A DNA stretch of 64,000 nucleotides from Escherichia coli (GTDB lineage: Bacteria; Pseudomonadota; Gammaproteobacteria; Enterobacterales; Enterobacteriaceae): the NCBI RefSeq assembly GCF_044324875.1, contig NZ_CP172185.1; one strand, written 5' to 3'. Positions 9,669-56,583 of this stretch are shown here, one piece after another. The notes below the pieces were generated by a model. That model was not told the origin of the DNA. It saw only the letters and a program-made list of their open reading frames with translations, and ran no database searches. The translations under genes and the position numbers were made by a program. Position 1 is the first letter of the stretch; each line of letters opens with the position of its first letter.

Positions 9669-10851
9669 CGGAGGGTTTCGTGGTCATGTTCATCGGTGTG
9701 AGATAGACATCCCCACCGGGACGCGGATTCATATCTTCCAGGTCGCGGCAGTCATTGGGAGAGTAAATTCCCCAGTTGATCCCGGTGGCGTAGGCTTCAA
9801 AACGGGACTTCATATCCCCGCGCAGTAACGCCCCGGCGTTAAATTTGGCGTAATAAACGCCCTGCTTACTTTTTCGTACCAGTCCGGTGTTGATCCGCTG
9901 TTCGATGCGGGTCAGATACGGCACCAGTGAATAGTTGATAAATCCCAGCCCCAGCTCTTCGATATTGTTGAAGGTGGCGCGATCGGTGTTCTGCACCATG
10001 TGCAACGGCACCCGGAACAGACGACAGATTTCTTCAAGCTGAAACTTGCGGGTTTCCAGGAACTGGCTGTCCTCGGCGTTCAGCGCCATCGACTTCCAGT
10101 CCAGCCCCATCTCAAGGATCATCGGGCGGTGAGCATTGCCAAGCCCGGTGTGACGCTCCTCAAAATCTTTCTTCAGGCGCTCATAAGCCTGATCTGACAG
10201 CGTCTGCTCTGTACGCAACACCCCCGACGTCACCGCGCCATTGCTGAACAGTCTGGCCCCGTGCTCTTCGGTCGCTGCCGCCAGCGATATTGCCTCGCGG
10301 GCATAGGCGACGGGATTCAGCCCCACCAGTCCGTCCAGCGTCAGCGTGCGCACATGCCAGATATCCTCCTGGCTCAGTACATCCGTGGAGCCATCCGGGA
10401 ATGTGACCTGATAGACCGGCTCCCAGCTACTGTTAAGCTTCGGTACCACACAACCGGGATCGACGGGCAGCAGTTCAGCCACTTCGCCAAATGCTTTCAC
10501 TTTGTAGGCGTAAAAATTTCCCCTCAGACACAGACAGGTGACCACCAGCTCCCAGAACTCCTGCGGCGTCATATAGCTATTGGGATGCGTGGAGATCAGT
10601 TTATGCAGACGTTCGCCGGTGGCTCTCTGCTTCAGGCTGCCGTTCAGGTGATACAGATTGCAGGGCAACATCCCGACCGACTCTGCCAGCACTCTGACGC
10701 AGGAAAAAACCGCCGTCAGTCGCATGGCTCGCTGACTGCTGATCTGCTTTCCGGTATAGGTGTCGTAGGACAACCCGATGGCATCCGCCAGCTCTGCTGG
10801 CGTGGTCACCGGTGCGTCACTTTTTCGTTGAAATAATCCCGAAAAGAACAC
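9610..10851 (-). CDS. Portal protein
   Basis: 413-aa ORF downstream of large terminase, HK97-type portal features. Confidence 0.8.
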   Translation of the reverse strand: MFFSGLFQRKSDAPVTTPAELADAIGLSYDTYTGKQISSQRAMRLTAVFSCVRVLAESVGMLPCNLYHLNGSLKQRATGERLHKLISTHPNSYMTPQEFWELVVTCLCLRGNFYAYKVKAFGEVAELLPVDPGCVVPKLNSSWEPVYQVTFPDGSTDVLSQEDIWHVRTLTLDGLVGLNPVAYAREAISLAAATEEHGARLFSNGAVTSGVLRTEQTLSDQAYERLKKDFEERHTGLGNAHRPMILEMGLDWKSMALNAEDSQFLETRKFQLEEICRLFRVPLHMVQNTDRATFNNIEELGLGFINYSLVPYLTRIEQRINTGLVRKSKQGVYYAKFNAGALLRGDMKSRFEAYATGINWGIYSPNDCRDLEDMNPRPGGDVYLTPMNMTTKPSDGSKAGKQKDNANADETTS

Positions 10852-15357: not shown

Positions 15358-15634
15358 CCGTAACAGCCACTTTGATATCTTCCTGGGTTCTCTGTGACTC
15401 CAGTGCGATCTGCTGTTTTGCATGCTGGTTAGCCTCCAGAACTGTATTGACGATTTGTAGTGATTGCAGGACGTTATTGGTAATGGCAGTTGCTGATTCA
15501 GCATTTCGTACAGCCTCATCAGCACGTTTCTTTTCGTACTGATATTTGCTGTAGTAGTGGTTGGCTGACCAGATGAAAGAACCAATGACAGTAACGAAGA
15601 AAGCAGCGATAACCAGCTTATAGCTCAACTTCAT
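15242..15634 (-). CDS. Rz: Rz-type inner-membrane spanin (i-spanin)
   Basis: 130-aa ORF with N-terminal TM helix and coiled coil, directly after endolysin. Confidence 0.7.
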   Translation of the reverse strand: MKLSYKLVIAAFFVTVIGSFIWSANHYYSKYQYEKKRADEAVRNAESATAITNNVLQSLQIVNTVLEANQHAKQQIALESQRTQEDIKVAVTDDDCASRHVPAAAADRLRKFADGLRERSGGTTASQPDF

Positions 15635-16094
15635 TTACCACCCCACCAGCCTCTTTAAACCGGGCAATCAGGTCACCGATTTTATGTTCATACTGACCGT
15701 AACCAGCACCCGGCAGTGAAGCCCAGATATTGCTGCAACGGTCGATTGCCTGACGGATATCACCGCGATCAATCATCGGTAAAGCGCCACGCTCTTTAAT
15801 CTGCTGCAGAGCTACAGCGTCCTGGCTTTCTGGAGAAAAATCTTTCAGGCCAAGCTGTTTACGGTAAGCATCCCACCAGCGTGAAAGAAGCTGGTAACGT
15901 CCGGCGGCTGTTGATTTGAGTTTGGGGTTTAGCGTGACAAGTTTGCGAGGGTGATCGGAGTAATCAGTGAACAGTTCACCACCAACAATAACATCATAAC
16001 CGTGGTTACGTGTCGGTTGTCGCCCGTTATCCGTTCCTTCTGACCATGCCACCATATCGAGGAAAGCTTTACGCTGGGAATTTAGTACCTGCAT
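15618..16094 (-). CDS. R: Endolysin, lambda R-type lytic transglycosylase
   Basis: 158-aa ORF near-identical over most of its length to recalled lambda R (NQRKAFLDM...AWSEGTDNGRQ...). Confidence 0.9.
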   Translation of the reverse strand: MQVLNSQRKAFLDMVAWSEGTDNGRQPTRNHGYDVIVGGELFTDYSDHPRKLVTLNPKLKSTAAGRYQLLSRWWDAYRKQLGLKDFSPESQDAVALQQIKERGALPMIDRGDIRQAIDRCSNIWASLPGAGYGQYEHKIGDLIARFKEAGGVVNEVEL

Positions 16095-16097
16095 AAA

Positions 16098-16424
16098 TTA
16101 CTCCTTAGAGCCACCAAACTTATTACCGATTACTCTCATTGCAGCCCCACGAATAGCATCGACACCGATCAGCCCCACCCCACCACCAATGGCAACAGAA
16201 AGCGATTTAGGCCATCCGACATACTCAAGAGCGGATGCAAAAGTCAGCGTCAGAGCGCCACAGAGTAGAATTTCGAGTGTTTTTCGCTTCCAGCCACCAC
16301 CACCGCCAAAATAGGCAATGCGCAAGCCAGCCATAACGATCGACATAATCACTGCGCCCAGTGGTGTGTCTCCACGCCACCAGCTCTGGACCAACTCCAG
16401 CCAGGTATTTGGGTTATGAGGCAT
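16098..16424 (-). CDS. S: Holin, lambda S-like class I
   Basis: 108-aa ORF with three hydrophobic segments and charged C-terminus, immediately upstream of R. Confidence 0.75.
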   Translation of the reverse strand: MPHNPNTWLELVQSWWRGDTPLGAVIMSIVMAGLRIAYFGGGGGWKRKTLEILLCGALTLTFASALEYVGWPKSLSVAIGGGVGLIGVDAIRGAAMRVIGNKFGGSKE

Positions 16425-16564
16425 TTGTAGTTATCTCTCACCTCGCCGATACAGGAGGTGCAAATTGAGGGAGTACCACGAACCGCAAACCAGAAGCGGA
16501 AACGTAAAAGAAGCCGAGCCAATGGATAAGTACTAGATAGACCAAGCCCAACGAATACCAAGGC

Positions 16565-16598
16565 CCAGAAATGACAAAACCCGCTCGACGGCGGGTTT
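16565..16598 (-). terminator. Intrinsic terminator upstream of holin (tR'-like)
   Basis: Hairpin AAACCCGC-cgtcga-GCGGGTTT followed by T-rich tract on minus strand. Confidence 0.5.
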
Positions 16599-16755
16599 AA
16601 GCTGTGTGGCAAAGTAACCACTCTTAACACGATATAATACTTTTTGCGTACGCGTTAACTTTTTCTGTAGTATTTAGTGTAAGATTCTTCACAAGATAGA
16701 TACTTTGGAGTACATGATGTAAAGTGCTGTATGCATAAACAGTACAAAGGATATC

Positions 16756-17277
16756 ATGATGAACAAATTAGCACGCTTATTATTAACAGCCAGCTCAATT
16801 GCACCTGTTTGCGCAACTCTATTTTTTATTGGATATGTAAAAGATACGGTTTGGCTGATGCAATATAGCTTATGCGTTGGCATAGCAAGTTGGTTATTAG
16901 CAATAGGCCTGATTCAATATGCTGAGAAACAACTTGAACCTCTGACAAAAAATATTAGTTCAGTTTCTCCCGCTAACAAAGAAGTAACTAATTATTTCTT
17001 AAGCTATTTATTCCCTCTCCTAGGAACAGATTCTATTGCTGAAAATAAAGCATATGCGTTATTCTTTTATTTATCATTGTTATTTTACATCAGCTTTTCC
17101 GAGAACTATAACTTTAACCCAGTATTGTCACTTATCGGTTATAAATTTTACGAAGCTGAAGATGACACCGGCGTAGGTTTTGTATTGATTTCTAAATCAG
17201 TTATTACTGATATTAAAGATATCAAATTTACAGTTATTCAATTAACAGACTACACATTTCTACATGTTAAAGGATAA
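16756..17277 (+). CDS. Multi-pass membrane protein, first gene of AT-rich cargo cassette
   Basis: 173-aa ORF with 3-4 hydrophobic helices, AAGGA ribosome-binding site, opposite strand to flanking late genes. Confidence 0.6.
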   Translation: MMNKLARLLLTASSIAPVCATLFFIGYVKDTVWLMQYSLCVGIASWLLAIGLIQYAEKQLEPLTKNISSVSPANKEVTNYFLSYLFPLLGTDSIAENKAYALFFYLSLLFYISFSENYNFNPVLSLIGYKFYEAEDDTGVGFVLISKSVITDIKDIKFTVIQLTDYTFLHVKG

Positions 17278-17282
17278 TAACC

Positions 17283-18167
17283 ATGGCACTTTTTGCAGTA
17301 ATAGATAATACAATTGCAACGAGAATTGTTAGAGTCGAACTTGATGCAACAGCAAGTACTTCTGTTACGGCCATTTTCCAACAACAGCGTCAATATTTTG
17401 AAAGTCATCATAACAATATGATACCATTCTATGCCGGTTATACACCAAAACATAGTGAGTGTTTTGAAATACAAAACTTTACTGATTCTGCACGCCTGAT
17501 TGACGCAGTCAATAGGCCTACCGCCGTGCCTATCTGGGATCCTAGCCAAATTGATATTGGTTATATTAAAGCATTATTTGTTGGTGTTGACGCGCCAGCA
17601 AACCCCAATATTATTGCACTACAAACTTTCAACAAAAAACAAATCTTAGATACCTCAAAATCATTCTTTGGAAAGCTTTTTGCAAGCAAAACTACCTTTA
17701 GTAAAGCTAATAGCATCGGTTTTAATGTTGATGATAAACTAGTTGCAATAATTATCAATGATACAATACGATTTAAGAGTTTCTTTAATCTAAGAAGCAT
17801 TTTTGACATGTCGTCCTATTTTTCTGCTGCTACTGACCAAGAACTTAATGCATTTAGTCAACTTAGTGTATTTTCTACTCCCCAAGGTTTTGATCTAAAA
17901 TCCGTTGCAGATACAGTGATAAGAAATAAAGTAACACTAATAAATCAGACTGGGATGCTAACACCCCAAAATATGTCAAAGTTTAAATCCGAAGCTGCTA
18001 AAGTTAATTTCCCCTTACAAACCATAATAGTTGGCGGTGTTGAGAAAATTGTCATGCCTTCATCAAAAAAAGAAATAAAAGCCCTTCTTGACTTTCTTGA
18101 GGAAGACATTTGGGTTTCTGGAATAAGTGGAAGACGCTTTAAATCGAATTCAAAGCGCCCAATATAA
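17283..18167 (+). CDS. Hypothetical soluble protein, second gene of cargo cassette
   Basis: 294-aa ORF starting 5 nt after the preceding stop with its own AAAGGA ribosome-binding site; AT-rich. Confidence 0.6.
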   Translation: MALFAVIDNTIATRIVRVELDATASTSVTAIFQQQRQYFESHHNNMIPFYAGYTPKHSECFEIQNFTDSARLIDAVNRPTAVPIWDPSQIDIGYIKALFVGVDAPANPNIIALQTFNKKQILDTSKSFFGKLFASKTTFSKANSIGFNVDDKLVAIIINDTIRFKSFFNLRSIFDMSSYFSAATDQELNAFSQLSVFSTPQGFDLKSVADTVIRNKVTLINQTGMLTPQNMSKFKSEAAKVNFPLQTIIVGGVEKIVMPSSKKEIKALLDFLEEDIWVSGISGRRFKSNSKRPI

Positions 18168-18188
18168 CTAGAAGACAGTTAAGAATAG

Positions 18189-18551
18189 TTAACAGGCAAG
18201 AGTGCAAACAATGCCTTCAATGAAACCAAGCGATGTTTGCAACTCTTTCCTGATAGTCCCATCCGAACACTTTCTCTTCTTAGCAATGGCTCGCAATGAA
18301 ATCCCTACCACAAAATGGGCTATAACTAACTCATACTCTTCTGGTTTGTACTTTCTTAATCTAGCTACGCACCCATCGATCATGAGCCCCTCATCATCAT
18401 CACACTGAATCCGGGACTTTTTGCCATGAGGTAAAAGCCCCTTGAAGCCAGCGGCTACCGGTTGCCAGTCCACTCCGCTATTGTCTGAAGCAGCCCAAGC
18501 TCCCCAACGATCCATCACTTCATACATATCACGCATCAACTTTCTCCACAA
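18189..18551 (-). CDS. Late-gene antiterminator Q (DLP12 QuuD-like); start probably at Met 18533
   Basis: ORF shares the WGAWAA...AAGFKGL...CSDG pattern of the small Q family as recalled. Confidence 0.75.
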   Translation of the reverse strand: MWRKLMRDMYEVMDRWGAWAASDNSGVDWQPVAAGFKGLLPHGKKSRIQCDDDEGLMIDGCVARLRKYKPEEYELVIAHFVVGISLRAIAKKRKCSDGTIRKELQTSLGFIEGIVCTLAC

Positions 18552-18553
18552 AA

Positions 18554-19549
18554 TCAGGCCAGTACGCCAATTGCCAGCGCACGATCGATAAAACGAAATA
18601 TCAGCTCCAGCTGAGAGCCATACTTCTCTTCAAATGCCACGGTATCCGCATGCAGCTCGTCGTGATGCTTTCTGCACAAAGGCAACACAAAGAGGTCATG
18701 CGCTTTTGTACCCATTCCACCCTGACCGTGGCCTATCAGATGGTGGGGATCATCAGCAGGCTTTCCACAACATGCACACGGCTGTGTCTTAACCCAGCGC
18801 GTGTACTTTTCATTAACCCAGCGGCGGCTTTTTGGGCGTAACATAAAAGACTCCGGCGACTCCGGATCCACTTTCAGCGCCAGCACCTTTTTCGCTTTAT
18901 CCAGGATGATGCTGGTGGCAGGAACCGAAGGCACAAGGTCACTTTCCCGGGTGACAGACGGCACAACAGGTTTCGGTAATCTCAGCGCCTTACGGGCTGC
19001 GCTTTCAGGTAAGGCATCCGCCAGGTCATTACGAATCAGCCACCAGCACAGTTCCGGCATTGTCACGGCATGGTTATCATCAGAATCGAGATCCCGACGG
19101 ACTACAGACAACACCCAACGGGCACAGTTATCCGTTGCCATTGATTCCAGCCGCTCCGTGAACTGATCACGTAACTGATTATCGCAGTGCCAGCACAGAC
19201 GGATTGCACCCGGCGCGTGTCGCATTGTGGTCATGTTCTCGCTGTGCCAGTCGGAATGAGGCCACTGGCAGCCTTTTTCACGAAGTAACCAGCTTTCAAG
19301 ACATTCCAACCCACCAGCACGACGAATCACTGCCTCATTACGGAACACGGCCCGAACGGCAGGATCATCCGCCAGCGGTTGTGATGCCGCCGGAACGGCA
19401 CCACTGGCGAAAGATGAATAACGTTCCGGCTCAGGCTCCAGCAGGACACGCCCCTGCATAAACAGGGGCATCAGCTCTGAACCTGGCCTGAACAATACGA
19501 TCCCCATACGCGGGGCAATTTCAGGGGTCAGTAGCGCTCTCACGGTCAC
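18554..19549 (-). CDS. DUF968-family prophage protein
   Basis: 331-aa ORF with C-terminal Cys/His cluster CACCGKP...HHLIGHGQGGMG typical of this prophage family. Confidence 0.6.
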   Translation of the reverse strand: MTVRALLTPEIAPRMGIVLFRPGSELMPLFMQGRVLLEPEPERYSSFASGAVPAASQPLADDPAVRAVFRNEAVIRRAGGLECLESWLLREKGCQWPHSDWHSENMTTMRHAPGAIRLCWHCDNQLRDQFTERLESMATDNCARWVLSVVRRDLDSDDNHAVTMPELCWWLIRNDLADALPESAARKALRLPKPVVPSVTRESDLVPSVPATSIILDKAKKVLALKVDPESPESFMLRPKSRRWVNEKYTRWVKTQPCACCGKPADDPHHLIGHGQGGMGTKAHDLFVLPLCRKHHDELHADTVAFEEKYGSQLELIFRFIDRALAIGVLA

Positions 19550-19550
19550 C

Positions 19551-20381
19551 TCAATGAACGGTATCGAGCAGCTTTAACAGCTCAGGGAACCGGGATTCGA
19601 AGAAATGCGGCTGCGTCTCGCGCGGATTTGCGGGACTGGTGATGTTCTTGCCGAACATGCAGCCTTTCGCCGTCAGCGACCAGAATTTTTTGATGTTGTT
19701 AATCGCAGTGCGGCTGTATCGTTCACGTTGTTCAACGATCCCCAGCTTCGCCATCTGGTGATATGCCTGATTAGCTGTCAGGCGGATACCATACTGCTTC
19801 AGCAGTGCACTCAGTGACAGCGTGGGGCGGCTTGAGCCATCAGGCGCGTCAGCAGGAGCATCAATGGCATAGCGCGGTGCCAGATTCGGTAAGCCAACAG
19901 CCTCCTGGAGTTTCTGACAGGCACCAAGCACTGAAGAGTTAGACAGGTTTAATTCCCGGCGCATAAAGTCCAGCAGAATCACACCAGCCTGCATCTTGTC
20001 AGCAGCCTGTCCGGATAATTTTTCCGGTGCGCTGGTTACCATGTCGAAAGTACGGATCACCTTCAGATGGAATGACGGGCTTATCCACATTGCATAGGCA
20101 TACACCAGTTCTTTGCAGACATACGTCCCCTGGTTATTTCCGCCACGAATAACGTTAACTGGCTCTATATTGACCGAGTTGCAAATCTGCAACTCGCTTA
20201 TTAAACGTTCAGTTTGCTCATTGCGGAGCCAGAATGCAGGCTTATGCTTATCCAGAGAACCGGCAGCCCTGTGCAGATCGTTCAGGCTGTAACGACCATA
20301 AGCATCACGACGAACTTCAATACCATCAATGACCATCAGATTATTCATACTTCGTTTCTCCTCTTGATCAGGCGGCTGCAC
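19551..20381 (-). CDS. KilA-N domain protein
   Basis: N-terminal VIDGIEVRRDAYGRYSLNDLHRAAG motif of the KilA-N DNA-binding domain. Confidence 0.7.
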   Translation of the reverse strand: MQPPDQEEKRSMNNLMVIDGIEVRRDAYGRYSLNDLHRAAGSLDKHKPAFWLRNEQTERLISELQICNSVNIEPVNVIRGGNNQGTYVCKELVYAYAMWISPSFHLKVIRTFDMVTSAPEKLSGQAADKMQAGVILLDFMRRELNLSNSSVLGACQKLQEAVGLPNLAPRYAIDAPADAPDGSSRPTLSLSALLKQYGIRLTANQAYHQMAKLGIVEQRERYSRTAINNIKKFWSLTAKGCMFGKNITSPANPRETQPHFFESRFPELLKLLDTVH

Positions 20382-20757
20382 CCGCCGTTTTCTCGTACTT
20401 ACTGATGGTGATCTCGACCTTCCCTTTCGGGATAACCGGTCCCCACTCCACCAGCATTCTTTTCACCTGTCTGTCGTCTTCCCACACACCCGCGTGGGTC
20501 AACGCGTCAAACAGCGCCTTGTTATAGTTGTCCAGATCGCGGATCCGGTTATCCGGAGGAAACAACACGATCTCCACTGAAGCAGGTGCCGACGTTGGTT
20601 TTGGCAGACGACGTAACTGCTCAACTATTGCTGCGCACGCCGCGCTCTGAAATTTTCGCCCCGCCGCGCTTATCAGGCTCTTACCAGCAAATGCCCCTTT
20701 GTTGGGGTGTCGCCAGTACGTGTTCACGCTGGGCGGGAAAGGCAGGATCAGCTTCAT
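20368..20757 (-). CDS. rusA: Holliday junction resolvase RusA
   Basis: 129-aa ORF with RusA-like sequence in the ninR-equivalent region. Confidence 0.85.
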   Translation of the reverse strand: MKLILPFPPSVNTYWRHPNKGAFAGKSLISAAGRKFQSAACAAIVEQLRRLPKPTSAPASVEIVLFPPDNRIRDLDNYNKALFDALTHAGVWEDDRQVKRMLVEWGPVIPKGKVEITISKYEKTAGAAA

Positions 20758-21080
20758 ACTTTCAGGCCTCTCTCATGTAACCAGTGGGTTGCACGCAGCC
20801 TGGCGTTTTCCTCACCGGCAAGCAGTGAGCGGATAATCCCGACCGCCTCGCTGTCGTCGTCCTTCACCGCGGTATGAAGAGTGATACCCCGGGCCACGCC
20901 ACGCTTTATCGTGATGACGCCTTTTTTCTCCAGTGCGCGAAGATGTTCCACCGCTGCATTCACTGAACGGTATCCCAGCATGGTTGCCACCTCCTGATTG
21001 GTTGGCGGGAAGCCACGTTCTTTCTGGTAAGAAATCAGCATATCCAGCACCTGCTGCTGGCATTGAGTTAACGTCGTCAT
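20754..21080 (-). CDS. LexA DNA-binding-domain-like protein lacking peptidase domain
   Basis: 108-aa ORF aligning by eye to the LexA N-terminal winged helix (QQQVLDML...GFPPT..E.A..LGYRS.NAA.EHL.AL.KKGVI). Confidence 0.6.
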   Translation of the reverse strand: MTTLTQCQQQVLDMLISYQKERGFPPTNQEVATMLGYRSVNAAVEHLRALEKKGVITIKRGVARGITLHTAVKDDDSEAVGIIRSLLAGEENARLRATHWLHERGLKV

Positions 21081-21729
21081 GCCGCCATCTCCCTGACCAG
21101 TTTTTCCGCCTGCTGGCGAACCTGCGCCAGAAACGCCTCACCACATGCCTCAAGTTCATCGCGCCCGATGTAGCTGATTGCCGGTCCCTTCCAGGTCTTG
21201 TCGAAAACAGCAATAGCACCAGCGAAGAAAGCGCCTGTCGGCACCTGCTTCTCGTCCTTCGGTATAAACCAGGCAGGCAGTTCAAAACCAATACGCCCGC
21301 GAATAAAAGCAATATGATCTGCATCTTCCGGCCACCACACTTCGCTGGTGGCCGCTTTGATCAGGAAAACATAGCGCCCGCCCTTATCACGCATGGCACT
21401 GGCATGTTTCATGATGTAACGCATGCCGGTGATGTATTGCCCCTCATGCTGACTGGCGCGGCTGTATGGGGATTACCAAAGGCAGCACCTTTAAGCTCCG
21501 CAAGACGTTCTGACCAGTCATGCGCCAGCGCGTTATCTTCCGCCGTGTAATACGCGGCACATTTGGCGTTATCACCGTCAGTAAACAGATCCAGAACAAA
21601 CGGGCCAAACAGTGTGTTAATTCCCCAGAAAATGTTGTCCGGCGTGCGCCACTGATCGCCCACTTCCTTCAGTTCATGGGCTGGTTTGTTCCGCAGTTCC
21701 ACCAGTGCCTGACAATATTTATTACTCAT
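21077..21729 (-). pseudogene. Phage DNA N6-adenine methyltransferase (Dam family) split by a 1-nt frameshift
   Basis: ORFs 21409-21762 and 21077-21424 together match the Dam family (WRTPD...NAKC..YYT...FGNP); frame breaks in a G4 run at 21469-21472 exactly at the NPPY motif. Confidence 0.7.
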
Positions 21730-22223
21730 TAAGCCCCCACGTAATTCCCTGACAGATACCACTCTTCACCCGATGCTGCGCGCTTGCTGCTTTTCTGTAA
21801 GCACTGCTCACGACGCGCCAGAAAATTGTTTCGTTCTGGCTGGGAGTGGCTTTCACGGAATGCCGCCATCCACACCGTTGCAGCACGACGGTATAAGCCC
21901 CTGGACTCCAGTTCTTCAGCCTGGCGGGTCAGGCACAAAATCACCCGGGGATCGTTAGTGCCGACATAGAAATTGCGCACAGGTCTAGTTTCACGAACTG
22001 GTTGTGGTTCCGGCTCCTGCGCTCTCTCAGTCAGGCGCGGGAAATGTCTGCGTGTATCTCCTTCACAACGGTGAGCCACACGCCCACTCTGACGTAACTT
22101 GCTTGCTGACTGCAGAACGCGCTGTCGTGAGTAACCTGCAAAAGCATCCGCAATGTCTCCGGAAGTACACCCCGGATGGGCTTCAATGAATTTCTGAACT
22201 TCATTCAAAAGACTCATAATCAC
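21729..22223 (-). CDS. Phage early protein, putative regulator
   Basis: 164-aa ORF whose stop overlaps the Dam start (TAATG). Confidence 0.4.
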   Translation of the reverse strand: MIMSLLNEVQKFIEAHPGCTSGDIADAFAGYSRQRVLQSASKLRQSGRVAHRCEGDTRRHFPRLTERAQEPEPQPVRETRPVRNFYVGTNDPRVILCLTRQAEELESRGLYRRAATVWMAAFRESHSQPERNNFLARREQCLQKSSKRAASGEEWYLSGNYVGA

Positions 22224-23161
22224 CCCCTGAATCCTGCCGGGATCTGGCTGTAGTCCACGTTGTCGTAACTGGCTTTGAAGTACGGGTCTTCGCGTTTTTC
22301 TGTGTGCGTGCTGACGGACGGCGATAAGCGCAGGGAAAGCTCATCCCATTTTTCCCGCAACTTCGACGGGCTGAGCACGTTACGGCACCAGAACGGATCG
22401 CGGCTGACGCGGCTGTACATCTCGCAGATTTGTTTGTGAGTACGACCATCCTGCACACACATCAGGCGAATTTCGTTTGCCCAGGCTGTCCAGTTAGGTT
22501 CTTTGGGACGAACCACCTCGCCGTCACATTCGGCGGCCTGCTCGTACAGGGCGATGATTTTTTTCCAGAGCCACTGTGCGCAGGTCAAATCATCCTGCGT
22601 TCCCCACTGGCGCTTTTTAGGGCTGAATACAACCGCATCAGGATGGCGAGTTAAAAAATCCTGTTCATCCATCTGCGTGTCCGGTTGCGAAGCGTCCGGA
22701 CGAGAAGGTTTTTTATCTGATGGATCATGTTTTGATTTTACTGACGGATCCCCGCCAGATTCTGACGGGTGAAAACCCGCTTTTTTGCCAGATTTCGACG
22801 CATCAAATTTTGACGGGTCAGATTTTGATGCGTCAGATTTTGACGGGTCAGAATCTGACAGTTGAGAAAATGCCGCTGCCTGAAGCTTCGCAACGTTAAG
22901 CTGATAAACATTCGACGCATTGCGGTTACCCTGGCGACGCGCCTTACGCGTTAACCAGCCTTCTGCTTCCAGCCGTGCGATAGCCGTTCTGACGGTACTC
23001 ATCCCCGCGCCAATCTGGCGGGCAATGGTTTCAATTGATGGCCAGCACACACCTTCGTCATTACTGAAATCAGCCAGGCGGGCCATAATTGCCACGCTGG
23101 ATAATTTCATGCCTGACGCAGCGCAACCATCCCATACATAGCCGGTTAATTTAGTGCTCAT
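22220..23161 (-). CDS. Replication initiation protein, O-like with N-terminal HTH
   Basis: 313-aa ORF with HTH near the N-terminus and an internal iteron-encoded repeat, in the O position. Confidence 0.65.
   Translation of the reverse strand: MSTKLTGYVWDGCAASGMKLSSVAIMARLADFSNDEGVCWPSIETIARQIGAGMSTVRTAIARLEAEGWLTRKARRQGNRNASNVYQLNVAKLQAAAFSQLSDSDPSKSDASKSDPSKFDASKSGKKAGFHPSESGGDPSVKSKHDPSDKKPSRPDASQPDTQMDEQDFLTRHPDAVVFSPKKRQWGTQDDLTCAQWLWKKIIALYEQAAECDGEVVRPKEPNWTAWANEIRLMCVQDGRTHKQICEMYSRVSRDPFWCRNVLSPSKLREKWDELSLRLSPSVSTHTEKREDPYFKASYDNVDYSQIPAGFRG
22762..22860. repeat. Iteron array (putative phage origin) inside the O-like gene
   Basis: About six direct repeats of a 12-15 bp unit related to GATTTTGACGGG. 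Confidence 0.5.
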
Positions 23162-23509
23162 GACCGACCTCTATTTCCCTGAATTTACGACGAAACTGTT
23201 CGAGCGGACTGAAGCATTCATGCTCATAGCCTTCGCGGAGGTAGATAACCCGTTGTGTTTCCGGCTCCCAACGAATGACTCTGACGGGCACTCCGTAGTG
23301 ATCTTTGAACCAGCGGTTAACTTGTCGCAAAGGACTGTCTCCTTCTGCCGGTTGAAATCACCCACAGCCCACTCTGCAAAGCTGTGGGTTACAATTTCCC
23401 TGTCACCTAGTACATTCACTGCATAGCAATATTCCACCTTCGCTTTTCCACCCGGTACAGGAAGCGCAATCAGTTGCGAGCGACGGTAGTGTGTTGTTAA
23501 ACTGTTCAT
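23151..23509 (-). pseudogene. Small early gene upstream of O, apparently frameshifted (or two overlapping short ORFs)
   Basis: Protein-like N-terminal half in one frame and protein-like C-terminal half (...[23 protein letters not shown]...) in the -1 frame ending at the O start; junction near 23325-23350. Confidence 0.35.
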
Positions 23510-24075
23510 GCGTTAGTTTCTCCACAACCAGAAGCAATCGACGCCACGACGCCCGGAGCTGCACACTCGCGGGCGTCATTACTTTCTGAAATGCAAAAAA
23601 TTTTGTAGACAAGTGCTGCATGCTCCTGCAGCTTCGAAATTGAGAGATACAGCTCGTCGTTAATTGCTGTCTTCTCATGCGGTTCCACTACACCGTCTTC
23701 GATTGCTGAACGAATCTGTTTTGAATAACTGCCGATCTGTTCAATGACTTCCAGCAGACGCTGGTTAATATCGGCGTTGTCCACATCCTCGACGTCAGGA
23801 AGAGACACAAAGACGCCATTTGCAGACTGCGCCACAGCATCAGCAATGAAATGAGTGCCACCAGCACGCTGTAAAACCATTGCCCATCCCAGCGGGAAAA
23901 TCTGATCGCCATCTGCACGAAGGCGGTTGAATAAAGCGTTTTCTGTTACATCGAGCCAGTCAGCCGCTTCAGCGTAACCACCCGGCAACGCCGCGATAGT
24001 TTTTCTGACAGCTTTCACGTACCACTCAGGCTGTTTTTCTATTTTCCAGTGATGCTTACCCACGATTAGCCTCAT
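23506..24075 (-). CDS. Putative CII-like early regulatory protein
   Basis: 189-aa ORF in the cII-equivalent position directly downstream of cro; position-based. Confidence 0.35.
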
Positions 24076-24106
24076 CGTTCTGTGGTTAAAAATTGAAAGT
24101 GTTCTG

Positions 24107-24310
24107 CTAATCTTTCGGATAGATATCCGGTCTTAAGTCAGATTTCGTAATTGCACCTGACGTGCATTGCTCAAGTTTTTTAGCCAGCACAAAACTGGCT
24201 TTTTTATAGCCATTGAAAACCAGCCGTAAGTAGCCAGGTGTTGAGCCAACTTTTCCGGCCAACTCGCCCTGCTGTTCTTTGGTTAAAGAGTCCCAATACG
24301 CTTTCATACA
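24107..24310 (-). CDS. Cro-like repressor (YdaS/Cro family HTH)
   Basis: 67-aa product from Met 24310 with C-terminal DLRPDIYP-like motif; the listed longer ORF reads through the operator region. Confidence 0.7.
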   Translation of the reverse strand, partial: CMKAYWDSLTKEQQGELAGKVGSTPGYLRLVFNGYKKASFVLAKKLEQCTSGAITKSDLRPDIYPKD

Positions 24311-24397
24311 ATATGTACCTCCGGTATACATATTACATGATTGAAATGAACCTTCAAGATACTTGTACCTTAACGGTACAAGGGTTTTAATTTCGTT
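24311..24397. promoter_or_regulatory. Immunity switch: divergent promoters with palindromic operators
   Basis: Palindromes ATGTACC-tcc-GGTATACAT (24314-24332) and CTTGTACC-ttaac-GGTACAAG (24362-24382); no Shine-Dalgarno before the cI ATG. Confidence 0.6.
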
Positions 24398-25072
24398 ATG
24401 AAAACAATCCATGACATCCGGCGGTCTAACGCCAGAAAACTGAGAGATGGTGTTGGCGGGAATTCTTCCTTTGCCACTATGATTGATCGCGAGCCAACCC
24501 AGACCAGCAGGTTTATGGGAGATGGTGCTACTAAAAATATCGGTGACAGCATGGCACGACACATCGAAAAATGTTTCGACCTGCCTGTCGGATGGCTCGA
24601 TCAAGAACACCAGACAACGAACATCACAAAAAAACCTGATGTTTCAATCACTAATAAACAAATCACATTAGTCCCTGTCATATCATGGGTACAGGCCGGA
24701 GCATGGAAAGAAGTTGGATATTCTGAGGTTGATTTGAGCACAGCAGAAACGTATCCCTGCCCTGTACCCTGTGGGGAAATGACTTATATCTTGCGGGTGA
24801 TAGGTGATTCAATGATTGATGAGTACCGCCCGGGAGACATGATTTTTGTCGATCCTGAAGTACCTGCCTGCCACGGTGACGACGTTATTGCATTGATGCA
24901 CGATACAGGTGAAACCACCTTCAAAAGGTTGATAGAAGATGGGACACAGCGTTATCTCAAAGCGTTAAACCCAAACTGGCCTGAGCCTTACATTAAGATC
25001 AACGGTAATTGCTCTATAATTGGAACTGTGATTTTCTCAGGAAAACCAAGAAGATACAAAATCAAAGCCTAA
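24398..25072 (+). CDS. CI-like repressor with HTH and LexA-like S24 peptidase domain
   Basis: 224-aa ORF; N-terminal HTH and C-terminal GDSM...K autocleavage domain. Confidence 0.85.
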   Translation: MKTIHDIRRSNARKLRDGVGGNSSFATMIDREPTQTSRFMGDGATKNIGDSMARHIEKCFDLPVGWLDQEHQTTNITKKPDVSITNKQITLVPVISWVQAGAWKEVGYSEVDLSTAETYPCPVPCGEMTYILRVIGDSMIDEYRPGDMIFVDPEVPACHGDDVIALMHDTGETTFKRLIEDGTQRYLKALNPNWPEPYIKINGNCSIIGTVIFSGKPRRYKIKA

Positions 25073-25084
25073 TCAATGTTTATG

Positions 25085-25108
25085 AACCTGCTTCGGCAGG
25101 TTTTTTTA
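25085..25108 (+). terminator. Intrinsic terminator after the repressor gene
   Basis: CCTGC-ttcg-GCAGG hairpin followed by seven T. Confidence 0.6.
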
Positions 25109-25111
25109 TAC

Positions 25112-25140
25112 TTGACAATGTACCTTTGGGATACATAATG
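25112..25140 (+). promoter_or_regulatory. pL-like promoter with overlapping operator
   Basis: TTGACA, 16-17 bp spacer containing TGTACC...GGATACA operator-like half-sites, then CATAAT. Confidence 0.55.
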
Positions 25141-25226
25141 TGCCCAAGAGAAACAACAAACAGGCAGGACGCCCACGAAGTAGCCGCCTGGAGCATATGA
25201 AGTCTAGGATGATTCGTTAGCAACAA

Positions 25227-25261
25227 AAAAGCGCCCTACAGGACGCTTAGCTCTTTAACAA
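25227..25261 (+). promoter_or_regulatory. Hairpin plus rrn-type boxA-like element in pL leader
   Basis: GC-rich hairpin 25231-25246 then GCTCTTTAACAA at 25250-25261, matching the rrn boxA core. Confidence 0.4.
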
Positions 25262-25306
25262 TCAGGTCCCCATCAACAAGTAACTGATAACTTGAGGAGG
25301 TGTGAA

Positions 25307-25513
25307 ATGCACAAAACAGAACCAAAAATCGTCGCGCCCGGATACACAAATGAGGAAATTTACGAGTGGATGGCAAAGAAGCTGGCAGCTATAAACCAGC
25401 TTCGTGAAGTGCTGTCTTATCGACAGGAAACAATAGACTCCTTAAAAAAACTGGATCAGGAAATCACGGTTTTATCACAGGATGTTACTTTAGATATTGT
25501 GCAGACAAATTAG
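25307..25513 (+). CDS. Hypothetical 68-aa protein, first gene after pL
   Basis: Strong GAGGAGG ribosome-binding site 6 nt before ATG; no arginine-rich motif. Confidence 0.5.
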   Translation: MHKTEPKIVAPGYTNEEIYEWMAKKLAAINQLREVLSYRQETIDSLKKLDQEITVLSQDVTLDIVQTN

Positions 25514-25919
25514 GATCCCATTCATTTTCGTCAAAATCATCAAAGTGATGAATTTGTGATCTCCAGTCTCGATAATCTAAAAATTTCTGGGCGGTTACGC
25601 TTATTTTATCAAGCGTGAGTTCATCCTGAATTGAAAGAAGAAGTTCATCAAATTTCATCTCATTAATCTGTTTTGGCATCCAGTGATGCTTCATCAGAAT
25701 AAGGTGAACCAGAGCTTTTTTCCCATTCAACTGATTATAGGGAGTGCCGAATTTCTTCCGGTGCTCATGTAAGACAAGGTCCAGAAGAGTAAGTAATGTT
25801 GCCCTTGATTCAACTTTGCTTATTTCGACTGATGACACTACCCCACTGATTTCAATGCCCCGATACTTTCCAACATTTTCACAGTGGGATTTGTACAGCG
25901 TATAGATATTACCGGACAT
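25485..25919 (-). CDS. Hypothetical 144-aa protein antisense to the pL operon
   Basis: AT-rich ORF with AAGGA ribosome-binding site; 3' end overlaps 25307-25513 convergently by 29 nt. Confidence 0.5.
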   Translation of the reverse strand: MSGNIYTLYKSHCENVGKYRGIEISGVVSSVEISKVESRATLLTLLDLVLHEHRKKFGTPYNQLNGKKALVHLILMKHHWMPKQINEMKFDELLLSIQDELTLDKISVTAQKFLDYRDWRSQIHHFDDFDENEWDPNLSAQYLK

Positions 25920-26070
25920 TTCTTTTCCTTTTGCGTTGTTGGGGATAACCAGATTAACCGAATCCTTGTTGTTGGGGAATAACCAGGTCCACCTCGCCTG
26001 ATGTGGCTAAAAGCAGGCACATAACAGCTAAGTATTTTCAACCAGAGAGAATCCTTAGCGTTGTGGTGAA

Positions 26071-26387
26071 TGCGGCTCAGCGCACGCGGGTTAAGGTTGA
26101 GGCTGACAGTCGACCTTCTGTGGATACCCACCCGCCTGGTGTGCAACCTTCGCCAGGCACCGGGAGGCACCCGGCACCACAACTTTATGCTGCGTGTAGT
26201 CTTGGCGGTACCAGCTTTTACCCTTGCTTCCGGCTGGTACCGTCCTTTTTACAAAACAGAGAAGAGCATTACCGGACGACGGGCTCATAACTCAATCCAT
26301 CCGGGCGGCTGCCACCGCAGGTGTTCTTCTCTGTTTTGTGGAGAAACTAATCGGCTTTGCAGGGTCGATATGATGAGGAGCAGCAAA
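26071..26387. other. GC-rich structured noncoding segment (candidate cis-acting RNA or ncRNA)
   Basis: Nested inverted repeats including a 12-bp stem GGCGGTACCAGC/GCTGGTACCGTC (26211-26251); short ORFs in several frames without ribosome-binding sites. Confidence 0.3.
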
Positions 26388-26750
26388 ATGGCTAGCGAAC
26401 GCAGTACTGATGTGCAAGCATTTATCGGGGAGCTGGACGGCGGCGTATTTGAAACCAAAATCGGCGCAGTTCTCAGTGAAGTCGCTTCCGGTGTGATGAA
26501 CACGAAAACCAAAGGTAAGGTCTCACTCAACCTGGAAATCGAACCATTTGATGAAAACCGTGTGAAAATCAAACACAAACTCTCATATGTTCGCCCGACT
26601 AACCGCGGGAAAATTTCCGAAGAAGACACCACCGAAACGCCGATGTATGTCAATCGCGGTGGTCGCCTGACTATTCTGCAGGAAGACCAGGGACAATTAC
26701 TGACTCTTGCCGGTGAACCTGACGGAAAACTCCGCGCAGCAGGTCATTAA
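26388..26750 (+). CDS. Hypothetical early-left protein (CPS-53 YfdP-like)
   Basis: 120-aa product from Met 26388 preceded by GAGGAG; the upstream in-frame extension from 26070 looks noncoding. Confidence 0.5.
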   Translation: MASERSTDVQAFIGELDGGVFETKIGAVLSEVASGVMNTKTKGKVSLNLEIEPFDENRVKIKHKLSYVRPTNRGKISEEDTTETPMYVNRGGRLTILQEDQGQLLTLAGEPDGKLRAAGH

Positions 26751-26815
26751 TATCGTTCTTAATTAACCGATTATTTATCTCATCACTGAATATCTTAATA
26801 TAGTGAGGACTTATT

Positions 26816-27640
26816 ATGTCTCAAAACTTAGACGCAACCGCATTTAATCAAATCCATGCCCTTATTTCTGCTCAGGGTGTTAATGAAATTATCAGTAAGA
26901 TTGGTGCCGATGCTGTGGCATTGCCTGAGAATTTCCGCATTCATGATCTGGAAAAATTTAATTTAAATCGCTTCCGTTTCCGTGGTGCGCTTTCCACTGC
27001 CAGCATCGATGACTTTACCCGTTATTCTAAAGATCTTGCAGATGAAGGCACCCGCTGCTTTATCGATGCTGATAATATGCGTGCCGTCAGTGTGCTTAAC
27101 CTGGGTACTATTGATGAACCAGGTCACGCAGATAACACCGCCACTCTCAAACTGAAAAAGACAGCACCGTTCTCTGCTCTGTTGTCTGTTAATGGCGAGC
27201 GTAACTCCCAGAAATCACTGGCAGAATGGATTGAAAACTGGGCCGACTACCTTGTGGGCTTTGATGCTAATGGTGACGCCATTCAGGCAACCAAAGCGGC
27301 GGCGGCTATCCGTAAAATCACAATTGAAGCGAACCAGACCGCTGATTTTGAAGATAATGACTTCAGCGGCAAACGCTCCCTGATGGAGTCTGTCGAAGCG
27401 AAGACCAAAGACATTATGCCAGTGGCATTTGAATTTAAATGCGTTCCGTTTGAAGGCCTGAAAGAACGTCCATTTAAATTACGCCTCAGCATTATCACTG
27501 GCGATCGTCCTGTACTGGTTCTGCGCATTATTCAGCTGGAAGCGGTGCAGGAAGAAATGGCTAACGAATTTCGTGATCTGCTTGTTGAGAAATTCAAAGA
27601 CAGCAAAGTAGAAACCTTTATTGGTACTTTCACCGCCTGA
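26816..27640 (+). CDS. DUF2303-type protein (YfdQ-like)
   Basis: 274-aa ORF recalled as matching E. coli CPS-53 YfdQ. Confidence 0.6.
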
Positions 27641-29628: not shown

Positions 29629-29847
29629 ATGTACTTGACACTTCAGGAGTGGAACGCTCGCCAGCGACGCCCAAGAAGCCTTGAAACAGTTCGTCGATGG
29701 GTGCGCGAATGCAGGATATTCCCTCCTCCGGTTAAGGATGGAAGAGAGTATCTGTTCCACGAATCAGCGGTAAAGGTTGACTTAAATCGACCAGTAACAG
29801 GTAGCCTTTTGAAGAGGATCAGAAATGGGAAGAAGGCGAAGTCATGA
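29629..29847 (+). CDS. xis: Excisionase Xis (lambda)
   Basis: 72-aa product MYLTLQEWNARQRRPRSLETVRRW... matches lambda Xis as recalled. Confidence 0.9.
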   Translation: MYLTLQEWNARQRRPRSLETVRRWVRECRIFPPPVKDGREYLFHESAVKVDLNRPVTGSLLKRIRNGKKAKS

Positions 29848-30895
29848 GCGCCGGGATTTACCCCCTAACCTTTATATAAGAAACAATGGATATTACTGCT
29901 ACAGGGACCCAAGGACGGGTAAAGAGTTCGGATTAGGCAGAGACAGGAGGATAGCAATTACTGAAGCAATACAGGCAAACATTGAGTTATTTTCAGGACA
30001 CAAACACAAGCCTCTGACAGCGAGAATCAACAGTGATAATTCTGTTACGTTACATTCATGGCTTGATCGCTACGAAAAAATCCTCGCCAGCAGAGGAATC
30101 AAGCAGAAGACACTTATAAATTACATGAGCAAAATTAAAGCAATAAGGAGGGGGCTACCTGATGTTCCACTTGAAGACATCACCACAAAAGAAATTGCAG
30201 CAATGCTCAATGGATACATAGACGAGGGCAAGGCGGCGTCAGCCAAGTTAATCAGATCAACACTGAGCGATGCATTCCGAGAGGCAATAGCTGAAGGCCA
30301 TATAACAACAAACCCGGTCGCTGCCACTCGCGCAGCAAAATCAGAGGTAAGGAGATCAAGACTTACGGCTGACGAATACCTGAAAATTTATCAAGCAGCA
30401 GAATCATCACCATGTTGGCTTAGACTTGCAATGGAACTGGCTGTTGTTACCGGGCAGCGAGTTGGTGATTTATGCGAAATGAAGTGGTCTGATATCGTAG
30501 ATGGATATCTTTATGTCGAGCAAAGCAAAACAGGCGTAAAAATTGCCATCCCAACAGCATTGCATGTTGATGCTCTCGGAATATCAATGAAGGAAACACT
30601 TGATAAATGCAAAGAGATTCTTGGCGGAGAAACCATAATTGCATCTACTCGTCGCGAACCGCTTTCATCCGGCACAGTATCAAGGTATTTTATGCGCGCA
30701 CGAAAAGCATCAGGTCTTTCCTTCGAAGGGGATCCGCCTACCTTTCACGAGTTGCGCAGTTTGTCTGCAAGACTCTATGAGAAGCAGATAAGCGATAAGT
30801 TTGCTCAACATCTTCTCGGGCATAAGTCGGACACCATGGCATCACAGTATCGTGATGACAGAGGCAGGGAGTGGGACAAAATTGAAATCAAATAA
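29825..30895 (+). CDS. int: Integrase Int (lambda, tyrosine recombinase)
   Basis: 356-aa product MGRRRSHERRDLPPNLYIRNNGYYCYRDPRTGKEF... matches lambda Int as recalled. Confidence 0.95.
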   Translation: MGRRRSHERRDLPPNLYIRNNGYYCYRDPRTGKEFGLGRDRRIAITEAIQANIELFSGHKHKPLTARINSDNSVTLHSWLDRYEKILASRGIKQKTLINYMSKIKAIRRGLPDVPLEDITTKEIAAMLNGYIDEGKAASAKLIRSTLSDAFREAIAEGHITTNPVAATRAAKSEVRRSRLTADEYLKIYQAAESSPCWLRLAMELAVVTGQRVGDLCEMKWSDIVDGYLYVEQSKTGVKIAIPTALHVDALGISMKETLDKCKEILGGETIIASTRREPLSSGTVSRYFMRARKASGLSFEGDPPTFHELRSLSARLYEKQISDKFAQHLLGHKSDTMASQYRDDRGREWDKIEIK

Positions 30896-31029: not shown

Positions 31030-32313
31030 GTGAACACATTTTCAGTTTCCCGTCTGGCGCTGGCATTGGCTTTTGGCGTGACGCTGACCGCCTGTAGCTC
31101 AACACCACCCGATCAACGTCCTTCTGATCAAACCGCGCCTGGTACCTCTTCTCGCCCGATTCTGTCGGCAAAAGAAGCGCAGAATTTCGATGCTCAACAC
31201 TATTTTGCGTCCCTGACGCCAGGTGCTGCAGCGTGGAATCCTTCCCCGATTTCCCTGCCTGCGCAACCTGACTTTGTTGTCGGCCCGGCAGGTACTCAAG
31301 GTGTAACGCATACCACGATTCAGGCGGCGGTAGATGCGGCAATTATCAAGCGTACCAACAAGCGCCAGTATATTGCCGTGATGCCTGGTGAGTATCAGGG
31401 AACGGTGTATGTCCCTGCTGCTCCGGGTGGAATTACTCTGTACGGTACAGGTGAAAAACCGATTGATGTGAAGATTGGGCTTTCCCTTGATGGGGGCATG
31501 AGCCCTGCCGACTGGCGTCACGACGTCAACCCGCGCGGCAAATATATGCCAGGTAAACCAGCGTGGTATATGTACGATAGCTGCCAGAGCAAACGCAGCG
31601 ACAGTATCGGTGTTCTCTGCTCTGCGGTCTTCTGGTCACAAAACAATGGCCTGCAACTGCAAAATCTGACCATCGAAAACACGCTGGGCGATAGCGTAGA
31701 TGCGGGTAACCATCCGGCGGTGGCACTGCGTACTGATGGTGACAAAGTGCAGATCAATAACGTCAACATTCTCGGTCGTCAGAATACCTTCTTTGTCACC
31801 AACAGTGGTGTGCAAAACCGTCTGGAAACCAACCGTCAGCCGCGTACTCTGGTGACCAACAGTTACATTGAAGGGGATGTGGATATCGTTTCTGGTCGCG
31901 GCGCAGTGGTGTTCGATAATACCGAATTCCGCGTGGTGAACTCTCGTACTCAGCAAGAAGCTTATGTGTTTGCACCGGCAACACTGTCTAACATCTATTA
32001 CGGTTTCCTCGCCGTAAACAGCCGTTTCAATGCTTCAGGTGATGGCGTGGCGCAACTGGGCCGCTCGCTGGATGTTGATGCTAATACCAACGGTCAGGTG
32101 GTGATCCGTGATAGTGCCATCAACGAAGGTTTTAACACGGCGAAACCGTGGGCCGATGCGGTGATTTCCAATCGTCCGTTTGCGGGTAACACCGGCAGCG
32201 TTGATGATAACGACGAAGTACAGCGTAATCTGAATGACACTAACTACAACCGCATGTGGGAATACAATAACCGCGGCGTGGGTAGCAAAGTGGTTGCAGA
32301 GGCGAAGAAGTAA
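31030..32313 (+). CDS. ybhC: Outer-membrane lipoprotein YbhC (pectinesterase-like), GTG start
   Basis: 427-aa product with lipoprotein signal LTACSS; K-12 synteny. Confidence 0.9.
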   Translation: MNTFSVSRLALALAFGVTLTACSSTPPDQRPSDQTAPGTSSRPILSAKEAQNFDAQHYFASLTPGAAAWNPSPISLPAQPDFVVGPAGTQGVTHTTIQAAVDAAIIKRTNKRQYIAVMPGEYQGTVYVPAAPGGITLYGTGEKPIDVKIGLSLDGGMSPADWRHDVNPRGKYMPGKPAWYMYDSCQSKRSDSIGVLCSAVFWSQNNGLQLQNLTIENTLGDSVDAGNHPAVALRTDGDKVQINNVNILGRQNTFFVTNSGVQNRLETNRQPRTLVTNSYIEGDVDIVSGRGAVVFDNTEFRVVNSRTQQEAYVFAPATLSNIYYGFLAVNSRFNASGDGVAQLGRSLDVDANTNGQVVIRDSAINEGFNTAKPWADAVISNRPFAGNTGSVDDNDEVQRNLNDTNYNRMWEYNNRGVGSKVVAEAKK

Positions 32314-32384
32314 AAAAGAAAACCCGATAGTCTGAACCATCGGGTTAATGAAACTGGGCGCTATATTTCATAGCGCCTTTTTTT
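32312..32384. terminator. Convergent intrinsic terminators between ybhC and ybhJ
   Basis: Two hairpins (32321-32348 and 32357-32384) with flanking A/T runs. Confidence 0.55.
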
Positions 32385-34644: not shown

Positions 34645-34721
34645 CAAATGCTCCAGATATCTGCGCACCGAGAAGTGCGCAGAAAGATAATAAATGGATA
34701 TACTCTAAATAATTAGAGTTG

Positions 34722-56426: not shown

Positions 56427-56459
56427 CTTGCGGGATTATGCTGCTTTAATCATTCAGGA

Positions 56460-56535: not shown

Positions 56536-56583
56536 ATACGGGTGTTACCTGAAAGATTTCTACTCGGAACCAATCTTTAAAAT

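Follow-up and report, generated by a model that had tools for sequence, protein, structure and literature searches.

A LexA DNA-binding domain without a protease in an Escherichia coli prophage: a possible uncleavable stand-in for LexA at SOS-type operators

What use could a phage have for the DNA-binding half of LexA, the protein whose cleavage triggers the SOS response and most prophage induction? The question is raised by a small gene in a prophage of Escherichia coli, located on a 64-kb stretch of contig NZ_CP172185.1 (assembly GCF_044324875.1) that was analysed as a whole and is called the window below. The gene occupies positions 20754..21080 on the minus strand, starts with the ATG at 21080 and encodes a LexA-like protein of 108 amino acids (aa). 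It is a real and widespread regulator of lambdoid phages. We favour the reading, at a probability of roughly 40%, that its product would take the place of LexA at SOS-type operators, in a form that cannot be cleaved.

The N-terminal part of the protein clearly belongs to LexA. The Pfam model PF01726 (LexA_DNA_bind) matched residues 1-65 over all of its 65 positions (E 2.9e-19), and the Pfam scan revealed no other significant domain in the 108-aa protein, Peptidase_S24 included. In a phmmer search, the best sequence matches in the PDB were all LexA; the N-terminal domain of E. coli LexA (1lea) was matched by residues 2-69 (E 6.9e-16), and the full-length LexAs were matched through their N-terminal ~70-86 residues only. 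A profile-profile comparison (hhalign) with 12 true LexAs aligned residues 1-74 with a probability of 99.9% (E 3e-32). The AlphaFold2 (AF2) model of the monomer, built from 28 family sequences, had a mean predicted local distance difference test score (pLDDT) of 84.5 and a predicted template modelling score (pTM) of 0.57. AF2, Foldseek and hhalign agree on a winged helix-turn-helix in residues 1-68 (20877..21080, minus strand), with predicted helices at 6-22, 28-35 and 40-52 and wing strands at 56-58 and 66-68. Foldseek placed these residues on LexA in the LexA-operator crystal 3jso_B with a root-mean-square deviation of 1.0-1.1 Å over 68 columns and ~50% identity.

The chain ends at residue 108. 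It lacks the S24 domain with Ser119 and Lys156, which in LexA is also the dimer interface, as well as the Ala84-Gly85 cleavage site in the hinge. Without an S24 domain, the protein cannot be inactivated by RecA-stimulated self-cleavage. The original prediction, made from the DNA sequence alone, had described the product as nothing more than a LexA DNA-binding domain without S24 peptidase, and had proposed fold prediction and superposition on LexA as a check. Both the domain assignment (E 2.9e-19, no S24 match) and the superposition (1.1 Å on 3jso_B) turned out as expected. The prediction also held that the protein aligns with LexA along its length, and this has to be corrected, since homology ends at residue 74 and residues 75-108 form a tail that is specific to the family.

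The profile-profile comparison revealed no LexA counterpart for this tail. Family alignments and AF2 define a two-helix hairpin in residues 75-103 (20772..20858, minus strand), with predicted helices at 75-88 and 93-103 (pLDDT about 87-90). Its consensus, EAxxIIRxLLAGExxARxRAxxWLxxxG, is kept in homologues of 38-52% identity, and A97 and L101 are invariant among the short homologues aligned. Because the tail is conserved, the family is better described as a LexA DNA-binding domain plus a hairpin than as a merely truncated LexA. Each of the two helices has one hydrophobic face; a hairpin of this kind would be expected to pack against something else, be it another copy of the protein or a different protein. 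It is thus a candidate oligomerisation or partner-binding module.

We also considered whether the LLAGEE sequence in the tail is a relic cleavage site (compare VAAGEP), and rejected this idea. One pairwise HMMER alignment, which runs to residue 90, sets A88-G89 opposite A84-G85 of LexA. However, the Ala-Gly pair is absent from distant family members and unaligned at the profile level, and AF2 predicts a helix at A88-G89, in contrast to the strand and loop found in LexA.

The DNA-reading surface is largely that of a proteobacterial LexA. Residue tables and a contact list place the recognition helix, SVNAAVEHLRALEK, at residues 39-52 (20925..20966, minus strand). Its sequence SVNAAVEHLRAL is of the proteobacterial LexA type (SPNAAEEHLKAL in LexA) and not of the Firmicute type. 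E. coli LexA is reported to contact DNA through S39, N41, A42, E44 and E45 (PMC3091678, a secondary source). Four of these five contacts (S39, N41, A42 and E45) are kept in the window protein, and so are the wing residues R64-G65-I66. The full set of DNA-surface residues of LexA (R28, S39, N41, A42, A43, E44, H46, R64) is not present, as position 28 carries N in place of R and position 44 carries V in place of E.

Two further groups of proteins are worth recording at this point. P0191, a full-length LexA-like protein of 209 aa, has V at position 44 (NAAVTHL), as in the phage family, and could be a full-length relative of the ancestor of that family. In the representative library, P0132, P0149, P0155, P0159, P0161 and P0186 carry two tandem LexA DNA-binding domains per chain, with recognition helices unlike that of LexA (for example SPNGVMCHL); these proteins may be single-chain dimers.

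We scored SOS-box sites with a position weight matrix built from 20 E. coli operators and regarded a box as strong if it scored at least 20. Among 80 IMG/VR loci with the gene (1.25 Mb), 59 such sites were found, distributed over 42 loci. Two sets of control loci, neither containing the gene, were almost devoid of them: 80 lambda-type ninG loci (1.11 Mb) had one site in one locus, and 80 DLP12-type rusA loci (1.11 Mb) had two sites in two loci. The difference between 42/80 and 3/160 corresponds to a Fisher p of 5e-21, uncorrected for relatedness; as the loci are related mosaics with ~10-12 distinct site contexts, this value overstates their independence. We also enumerated palindromes with all 4- and 5-mer half-sites and spacers of 0-12 in ~11.5 kb of intergenic DNA from nine divergent lineages. 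CTGT-N8-ACAG ranked first, with five sites in four lineages. The main contexts in which strong boxes occur are the linker of a cI allele, the 5' end of a methylase moron, the Kiwa cassette and the dinI promoter of mEp460, along with several others.

The methylase context consists of a DNA-methyltransferase moron (SfV orf48) between Q and holin that has a strong SOS box at its 5' end. The boxes are located at 2856-2875 in SfV (L002), at 41021-41040 in mEp460 (L009) and at 7739-7758 in L091. In the phage collection, all 27 E. coli and Shigella phage records with this moron carry the LexA-like gene, and of the two methylase matches found further afield, the one in Klebsiella phage Kp4866-6 is likewise accompanied by a LexA-like homologue.

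A box of a different kind lies inside a coding sequence. An allele of a cleavable cI-type repressor, differing from that of the window, contains a near-consensus SOS box in the part that encodes the linker between the helix-turn-helix and S24 domains. We found it at 10364-10383 in PMV-1 (L001), 836-855 in L003, 16991-17010 in L178 and 31970-31989 in mEp460. The CTGT and ACAG arms are kept between alleles that are 71% identical, despite a different linker peptide, and there is no obvious promoter flanking the box. All 13 phage-collection records with the boxed allele carry the LexA-like gene.

Three divergent lineages (L007/L008, L091 and L094, with proteins 38-42% identical to ours) have a strong SOS box in front of the LexA-like gene itself, at a distance of 440-760 bp and in the same orientation. 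The operon heads are found at 5503-6001 (L007), 4478-5001 (L091) and 4200-5001 (L094). Read by eye, the boxes adjoin or overlap sigma-70-like hexamers. In L007, a terminator hairpin is followed by TTGCAA, 16 nt, TAATAA and then the SOS box; the arrangement in L091 is similar, likewise with a terminator hairpin in front. L094 has two overlapping SOS boxes, and the first open reading frame (ORF) behind them has a RecA_C Pfam match. The operons headed in this way contain one or more small ORFs, the LexA-like gene, rusA and DUF968; those of L007 and L091 continue after DUF968 with a Q-type antiterminator, and their small ORFs seem, by eye, to be homologous to each other. The immunity repressor of L007 has no S24 domain, and in this lineage LexA cleavage seems to turn on the whole module directly, the LexA-like gene included. 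In both L007 and L091, the SOS-box promoter would place the late-gene antiterminator directly under LexA control.

The window itself contains a single CTGT-N8-ACAG site (16727-16742). It forms the core of the SOS box TGCTGTATGCATAAACAGTA (16725..16744), which lies 12 bp upstream of the start of the kwaA ORF (ATG at 16756). The box scores 22.7, a value that falls among those of genuine E. coli operators; the runner-up in the window reaches only 11.3. Behind the box, on the plus strand, are the two genes of a complete Kiwa defence cassette, kwaA (16756-17277; PADLOC KwaA, E 1.9e-83) and kwaB (17283-18167; PADLOC KwaB, E 2.3e-150; Pfam KwaB). The cassette sits between Q and holin on the strand opposite to the phage late genes. 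Its box is a candidate target of host LexA and also, we infer, of the phage LexA-like protein.

An identical box was present in both of the two other Kiwa-carrying prophages checked. Of 5426 complete E. coli genomes, 32 have the cassette; no record of the phage collection does. It is 100% identical to that of E. coli H1827/12, but its flanks are only about 97.6% identical. A literature search did not yield a link between Kiwa and LexA control. PADLOC gave no indication that the LexA-like protein itself belongs to a defence system, as its only match was a marginal and irrelevant one to CARF.

When would the protein be made? On the minus strand, the genes follow each other in the order cro-like, cII-like, replication gene, PerC, dam, LexA-like gene, rusA, kilA-N, DUF968/HNH and Q. 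At either end the LexA-like gene shares 4 bases with its neighbour, with the stop of dam at its start and with the start of rusA at its stop (ATGA), as is usual where translation within an operon is coupled; 9 nt 5' of the start codon there is a GGAG. Between the gene and the cro/immunity region, the minus strand showed nothing resembling a promoter. The simplest reading would be expression from the early rightward promoter in lytic growth.

This suggests the following scenario. The LexA-like protein would be translated from the delayed-early nin operon once the prophage has been induced or a cell infected, while the repressed lysogen would not make it. The protein would then bind LexA-type operators containing CTGT, possibly as an oligomer held together by the tail, and would restore or limit repression at SOS-box promoters once host LexA has been destroyed. 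Its targets would be phage SOS boxes (here, the box before the Kiwa cassette) and possibly host SOS promoters. In the distant lineages, it would limit or shut off its own SOS-headed operon. Occupation of LexA operators after the loss of LexA is the best fit to the combination of a LexA-type domain, resistance to RecA, synthesis in the lytic or SOS phase and box-rich genomes. An isolated N-terminal fragment of LexA keeps weak operator binding, and the cell removes this fragment with ClpXP. More tentative than the general role is the outcome that such a RecA-proof replacement re-occupies SOS boxes so as to close phage genes, and possibly the host SOS regulon and the LexA-controlled antirepressors of rival prophages as well.

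Several observations weigh against a role at LexA's own operators. R28, found in 12 of 12 true LexAs, is replaced by N, Y or other residues in all 28 family members, and E44, a listed contact found in 11 of 12 true LexAs, is replaced by V, A, F, T, L or Y in all 28. The role ascribed to these two residues is taken from the secondary source cited above and from conservation, and given their family-wide replacement, a specificity identical to that of LexA should not be assumed. More distant members change the helix further (N41Y in P0219, TVFI in P0242) next to SOS boxes that are canonical, which would fit an operator that has drifted away from that of LexA. The enrichment of boxes, spread over ~10-12 contexts in related mosaic phages, could reflect lineage history, and some lineages (L004, L090) have no SOS box within +/-5-6 kb. 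A two-copy AF2 prediction (30-residue Gly-Ser linker, paired alignment) was worse than the monomer, with a pLDDT of 66.8 and a pTM of 0.35, and lends no support to dimerisation. Finally, the one analogue studied by experiment, gp6, a truncated LexA homologue of the Bacillus thuringiensis tectivirus GIL01, binds a non-SOS palindrome (GaCACAC/GTGTGaC) over the -35 element of the late promoter P3 and activates transcription there (PMC6182141).

The loss of R28 and E44 and the precedent of gp6 would favour a different reading, in which the protein is a dedicated phage regulator with an operator of its own, switching a late, moron or nin-region promoter in the manner of gp6 and leaving host SOS boxes alone. 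The recognition helix is indeed far more variable in the family than among true LexAs, and the matching protein family, PHROG 362, is annotated as a transcription regulator. However, we could not find the operator that such a regulator would use: no palindrome other than the SOS box, which came first across the nine lineages, was conserved there, and an inverted-repeat scan of 15500-27000 gave only the cI/cro operators and scattered weak pairs. The E. coli clade moreover keeps S39, N41, A42 and E45. We regard a private operator as the main rival reading, somewhat less likely than the stand-in for LexA. As to the original prediction that the protein could occupy SOS boxes, the enrichment (42/80 versus 3/160), the top-ranking palindrome and the SOS-headed operons speak indirectly in its favour, while the replacement of R28 and E44 and the different site of gp6 caution against equating its binding with that of LexA.

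The constant neighbourhood of the gene suggests yet another function, as a DNA-binding accessory of RusA, DUF968/HNH and Dam that might target the resolvase to phage DNA or restrain it there. We examined eight more distant lineages through their contigs, and in all lineages (38-100% identity) rusA lies directly or closely 3' of the gene, usually with overlapping stop and start codons. The exceptions are insertions of an ORF of 66-67 aa (L007, L094) or of a minus-strand ORF (L090) and a gap of ~200 bp (L095). DUF968 comes next after rusA in the eight distant lineages, followed by the antiterminator wherever the contig reaches that far and the gene is identifiable. The upstream neighbour varies and can be Dam, a C5 methylase, a replication gene or small ORFs. 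A similar accessory role has been suggested for the small DNA-binding Nin proteins beside Rap in lambda. On the other hand, DLP12-type RusA occurs in 80 of 80 sampled loci without the LexA-like gene, so RusA does not need the protein. Its fold is one of sequence-specific operator binding, the order of genes in a nin region can be passed on as a unit, and an accessory function would not account for the link with SOS boxes. We therefore consider an accessory function improbable.

Antagonism of LexA by direct contacts seems very improbable. The original prediction had proposed mixed dimers with host LexA; alternatively, LLAGEE might act as a pseudo-substrate for S24 peptidases or RecA*. The latter idea draws on the pairwise HMMER alignment of A88-G89 with the LexA cleavage site, and it meets the same objections as the relic site described above: profile homology that stops at 74, no Ala-Gly in distant members and a predicted helix at that place. 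Dimerisation of LexA runs through its C-terminal domain, which is missing here, and the tail has no LexA homology beyond residue 74, so the mixed-dimer proposal was not upheld. It is hardly conceivable, finally, that the gene is a non-functional remnant of a captured lexA. Nothing specific points in this direction apart from the frameshift in the neighbouring dam of the window. The ORF is intact, core and wing residues are invariant and the tail is conserved over a range of 38-100% identity, and the sequence clusters of the family have thousands of members.

The distribution of the gene is equally hard to reconcile with a remnant. A 1.2-kb stretch comprising the gene and parts of dam and rusA matched 2668 of 5426 complete E. 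coli genomes, and in 1629 of these the match covered 80% or more of the stretch. Among phages, the gene is carried by mEp460 (as gp46), SfII, SfIV, SfV, cdtI, Stx2a phages and 15 of 15 records of Stx2c phages, and these phage copies are 95-100% identical to the window protein. The latter does not differ from WP_000210170.1, annotated in E. coli PMV-1 as "LexA family transcriptional regulator", and the window does not differ from PMV-1 between 20300 and 21466. Its equivalent in SfV is orf42 ("unknown"). The match to PHROG 362 ("transcriptional repressor") extends over residues 1-108 and positions 1-106 of 106 (E 1.1e-59); it thus includes the tail, and the gene has the position just upstream of rusA that goes with this family. 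Among 1.84 billion representative proteins, we found 4580 relatives, most of which are true LexAs; some are short (100-135 aa), with an alignment that spans the tail too.

Public databases label the protein variously as "LexA DNA binding domain protein", "transcriptional repressor", "LexA repressor" or "SOS-response repressor and protease LexA". These labels are computational, and the last one is plainly wrong. Full-text literature searches for an experimental study of the enterobacterial family found none, and only GIL01 gp6 surfaced. The gene is absent from E. coli K-12, whose CPS-53 remnant still contains yfdN (PerC family) but breaks off after yfdM, a truncated Dam; this absence may explain why it has not been studied. 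That prophages encode a LexA DNA-binding domain without a protease is already visible in public annotation. New here are the independent lineage with its extra hairpin, the wide spread in E. coli and toxin-converting phages, and the tie to SOS-box promoters through a cis element.

The remaining features of the locus are in line with a lambdoid prophage. Downstream of the LexA-like gene, all on the minus strand, lie the RusA Holliday-junction resolvase (20368..20757; PF05866 and synteny) and, by Pfam, a KilA-N protein (19551-20381), a DUF968/HNH protein (18554-19549) and the Q antiterminator (18189-18551). Upstream is the phage Dam methyltransferase (21077..21762, minus strand; alignment with PMV-1), which is split into two ORFs (21409-21762 and 21077-21424) with PF05869 on both halves. 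The cause is the loss of one base from a G run near 21467, which reads GGGG in the window and GGGGG in PMV-1 and all other matches (spans of 1202 versus 1201 bases); the break marks either a pseudogene or a sequencing error in the homopolymer. A PerC-family protein homologous to yfdN is encoded at 21729-22223 (minus strand), two genes upstream from the LexA-like one. Members of the PerC/Pch group are known as regulators of virulence genes in pathogenic E. coli. Further on are a divergent cI-like repressor with an S24 domain (24398-25072; Pfam) and, at the prophage end, a lambda-type integrase (29825-30895). Next to the integrase is a host gene resembling pectinesterase (31030-32313), and then comes a gene of the aconitase family (32383-34668). 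On its left side, the prophage extends past the window. The presence of lysis genes, Q, the S24-type repressor and the integrase confirms that the gene resides in a prophage, as the original prediction had it.

Two other observations concern the window as such. Within kilA-N, a 27-nt imperfect inverted repeat (20157-20214; 70% complementary, outer ends AACTGG...CAGTT) may be due to chance. An array of seven tRNA genes (56351-57252, minus strand; five tRNA-Lys UUU and two tRNA-Val UAC) appears to be an ordinary host tRNA operon.

If the protein does act as a stand-in for LexA, then an uncleavable phage LexA head would uncouple SOS-box promoters from RecA signalling in the lytic cycle. The time for which SOS genes, defence systems under SOS control and competing prophages remain active would change as a result. 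The phage genes closed would be its own Kiwa cassette, the methylase morons and the SOS-driven nin/Q operons. Given its distribution, the protein would be a common and unrecognised modifier of SOS responses, of prophage competition and possibly of toxin-phage induction.

How does the protein compare with known systems? With host LexA (1lea, 1jhh, 3jso) it shares a winged helix that is ~50% identical and superposes at 1.1 Å, including S39, N41, A42, E45 and R64-G65-I66. It differs from LexA in lacking the hinge with the cleavage site, the S24 Ser/Lys protease and the C-terminal dimerisation domain, in having a two-helix tail found in its own family only, and in the replacement of R28 and E44. 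It is also encoded in a phage nin operon, not at an autoregulated lexA locus. Its closest counterparts, SfV orf42, mEp460 gp46 and the proteins of cdtI, SfII, Stx2a and Stx2c phages, are members of PHROG 362 and thus of the same gene family.

The proposed role recalls that of Cro, a small DNA-binding protein of the early lytic phase that turns down promoters earlier held by a cleavable repressor. The parallel with lambda Cro is meant as a functional analogy only, since its fold and operators are unrelated to those of the LexA-like protein, and the window prophage has a Cro-like gene of its own beside cI.

The nearest precedent is gp6 of GIL01, which likewise comes from a temperate phage, is in essence a LexA DNA-binding domain and activates the late promoter P3 (PMC6182141). 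GIL01 is wired to host LexA and the SOS response via LexA boxes on its own genome, and gp6 acts after SOS induction. The two proteins nevertheless do not belong to one family, a possibility that we considered and rejected. With 66 aa, a Bacillus-type helix (SHKTAHRYL) and no hairpin, gp6 lacks the extra 35-aa tail of the LexA-like protein; phage type and gene position differ, and BLASTP gave no alignment between the two. A palindrome of the type found at the gp6-controlled late promoter did not emerge from the inverted-repeat scan or the nine-lineage enumeration, and late transcription here has the Q antiterminator. The Firmicute-type helix of gp6 and the lack of an alignment argue for independent truncation and capture. 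Even if the LexA-like protein uses an operator of its own, it would be a second, independent case in which a LexA DNA-binding domain has been made into a lytic-cycle regulator.

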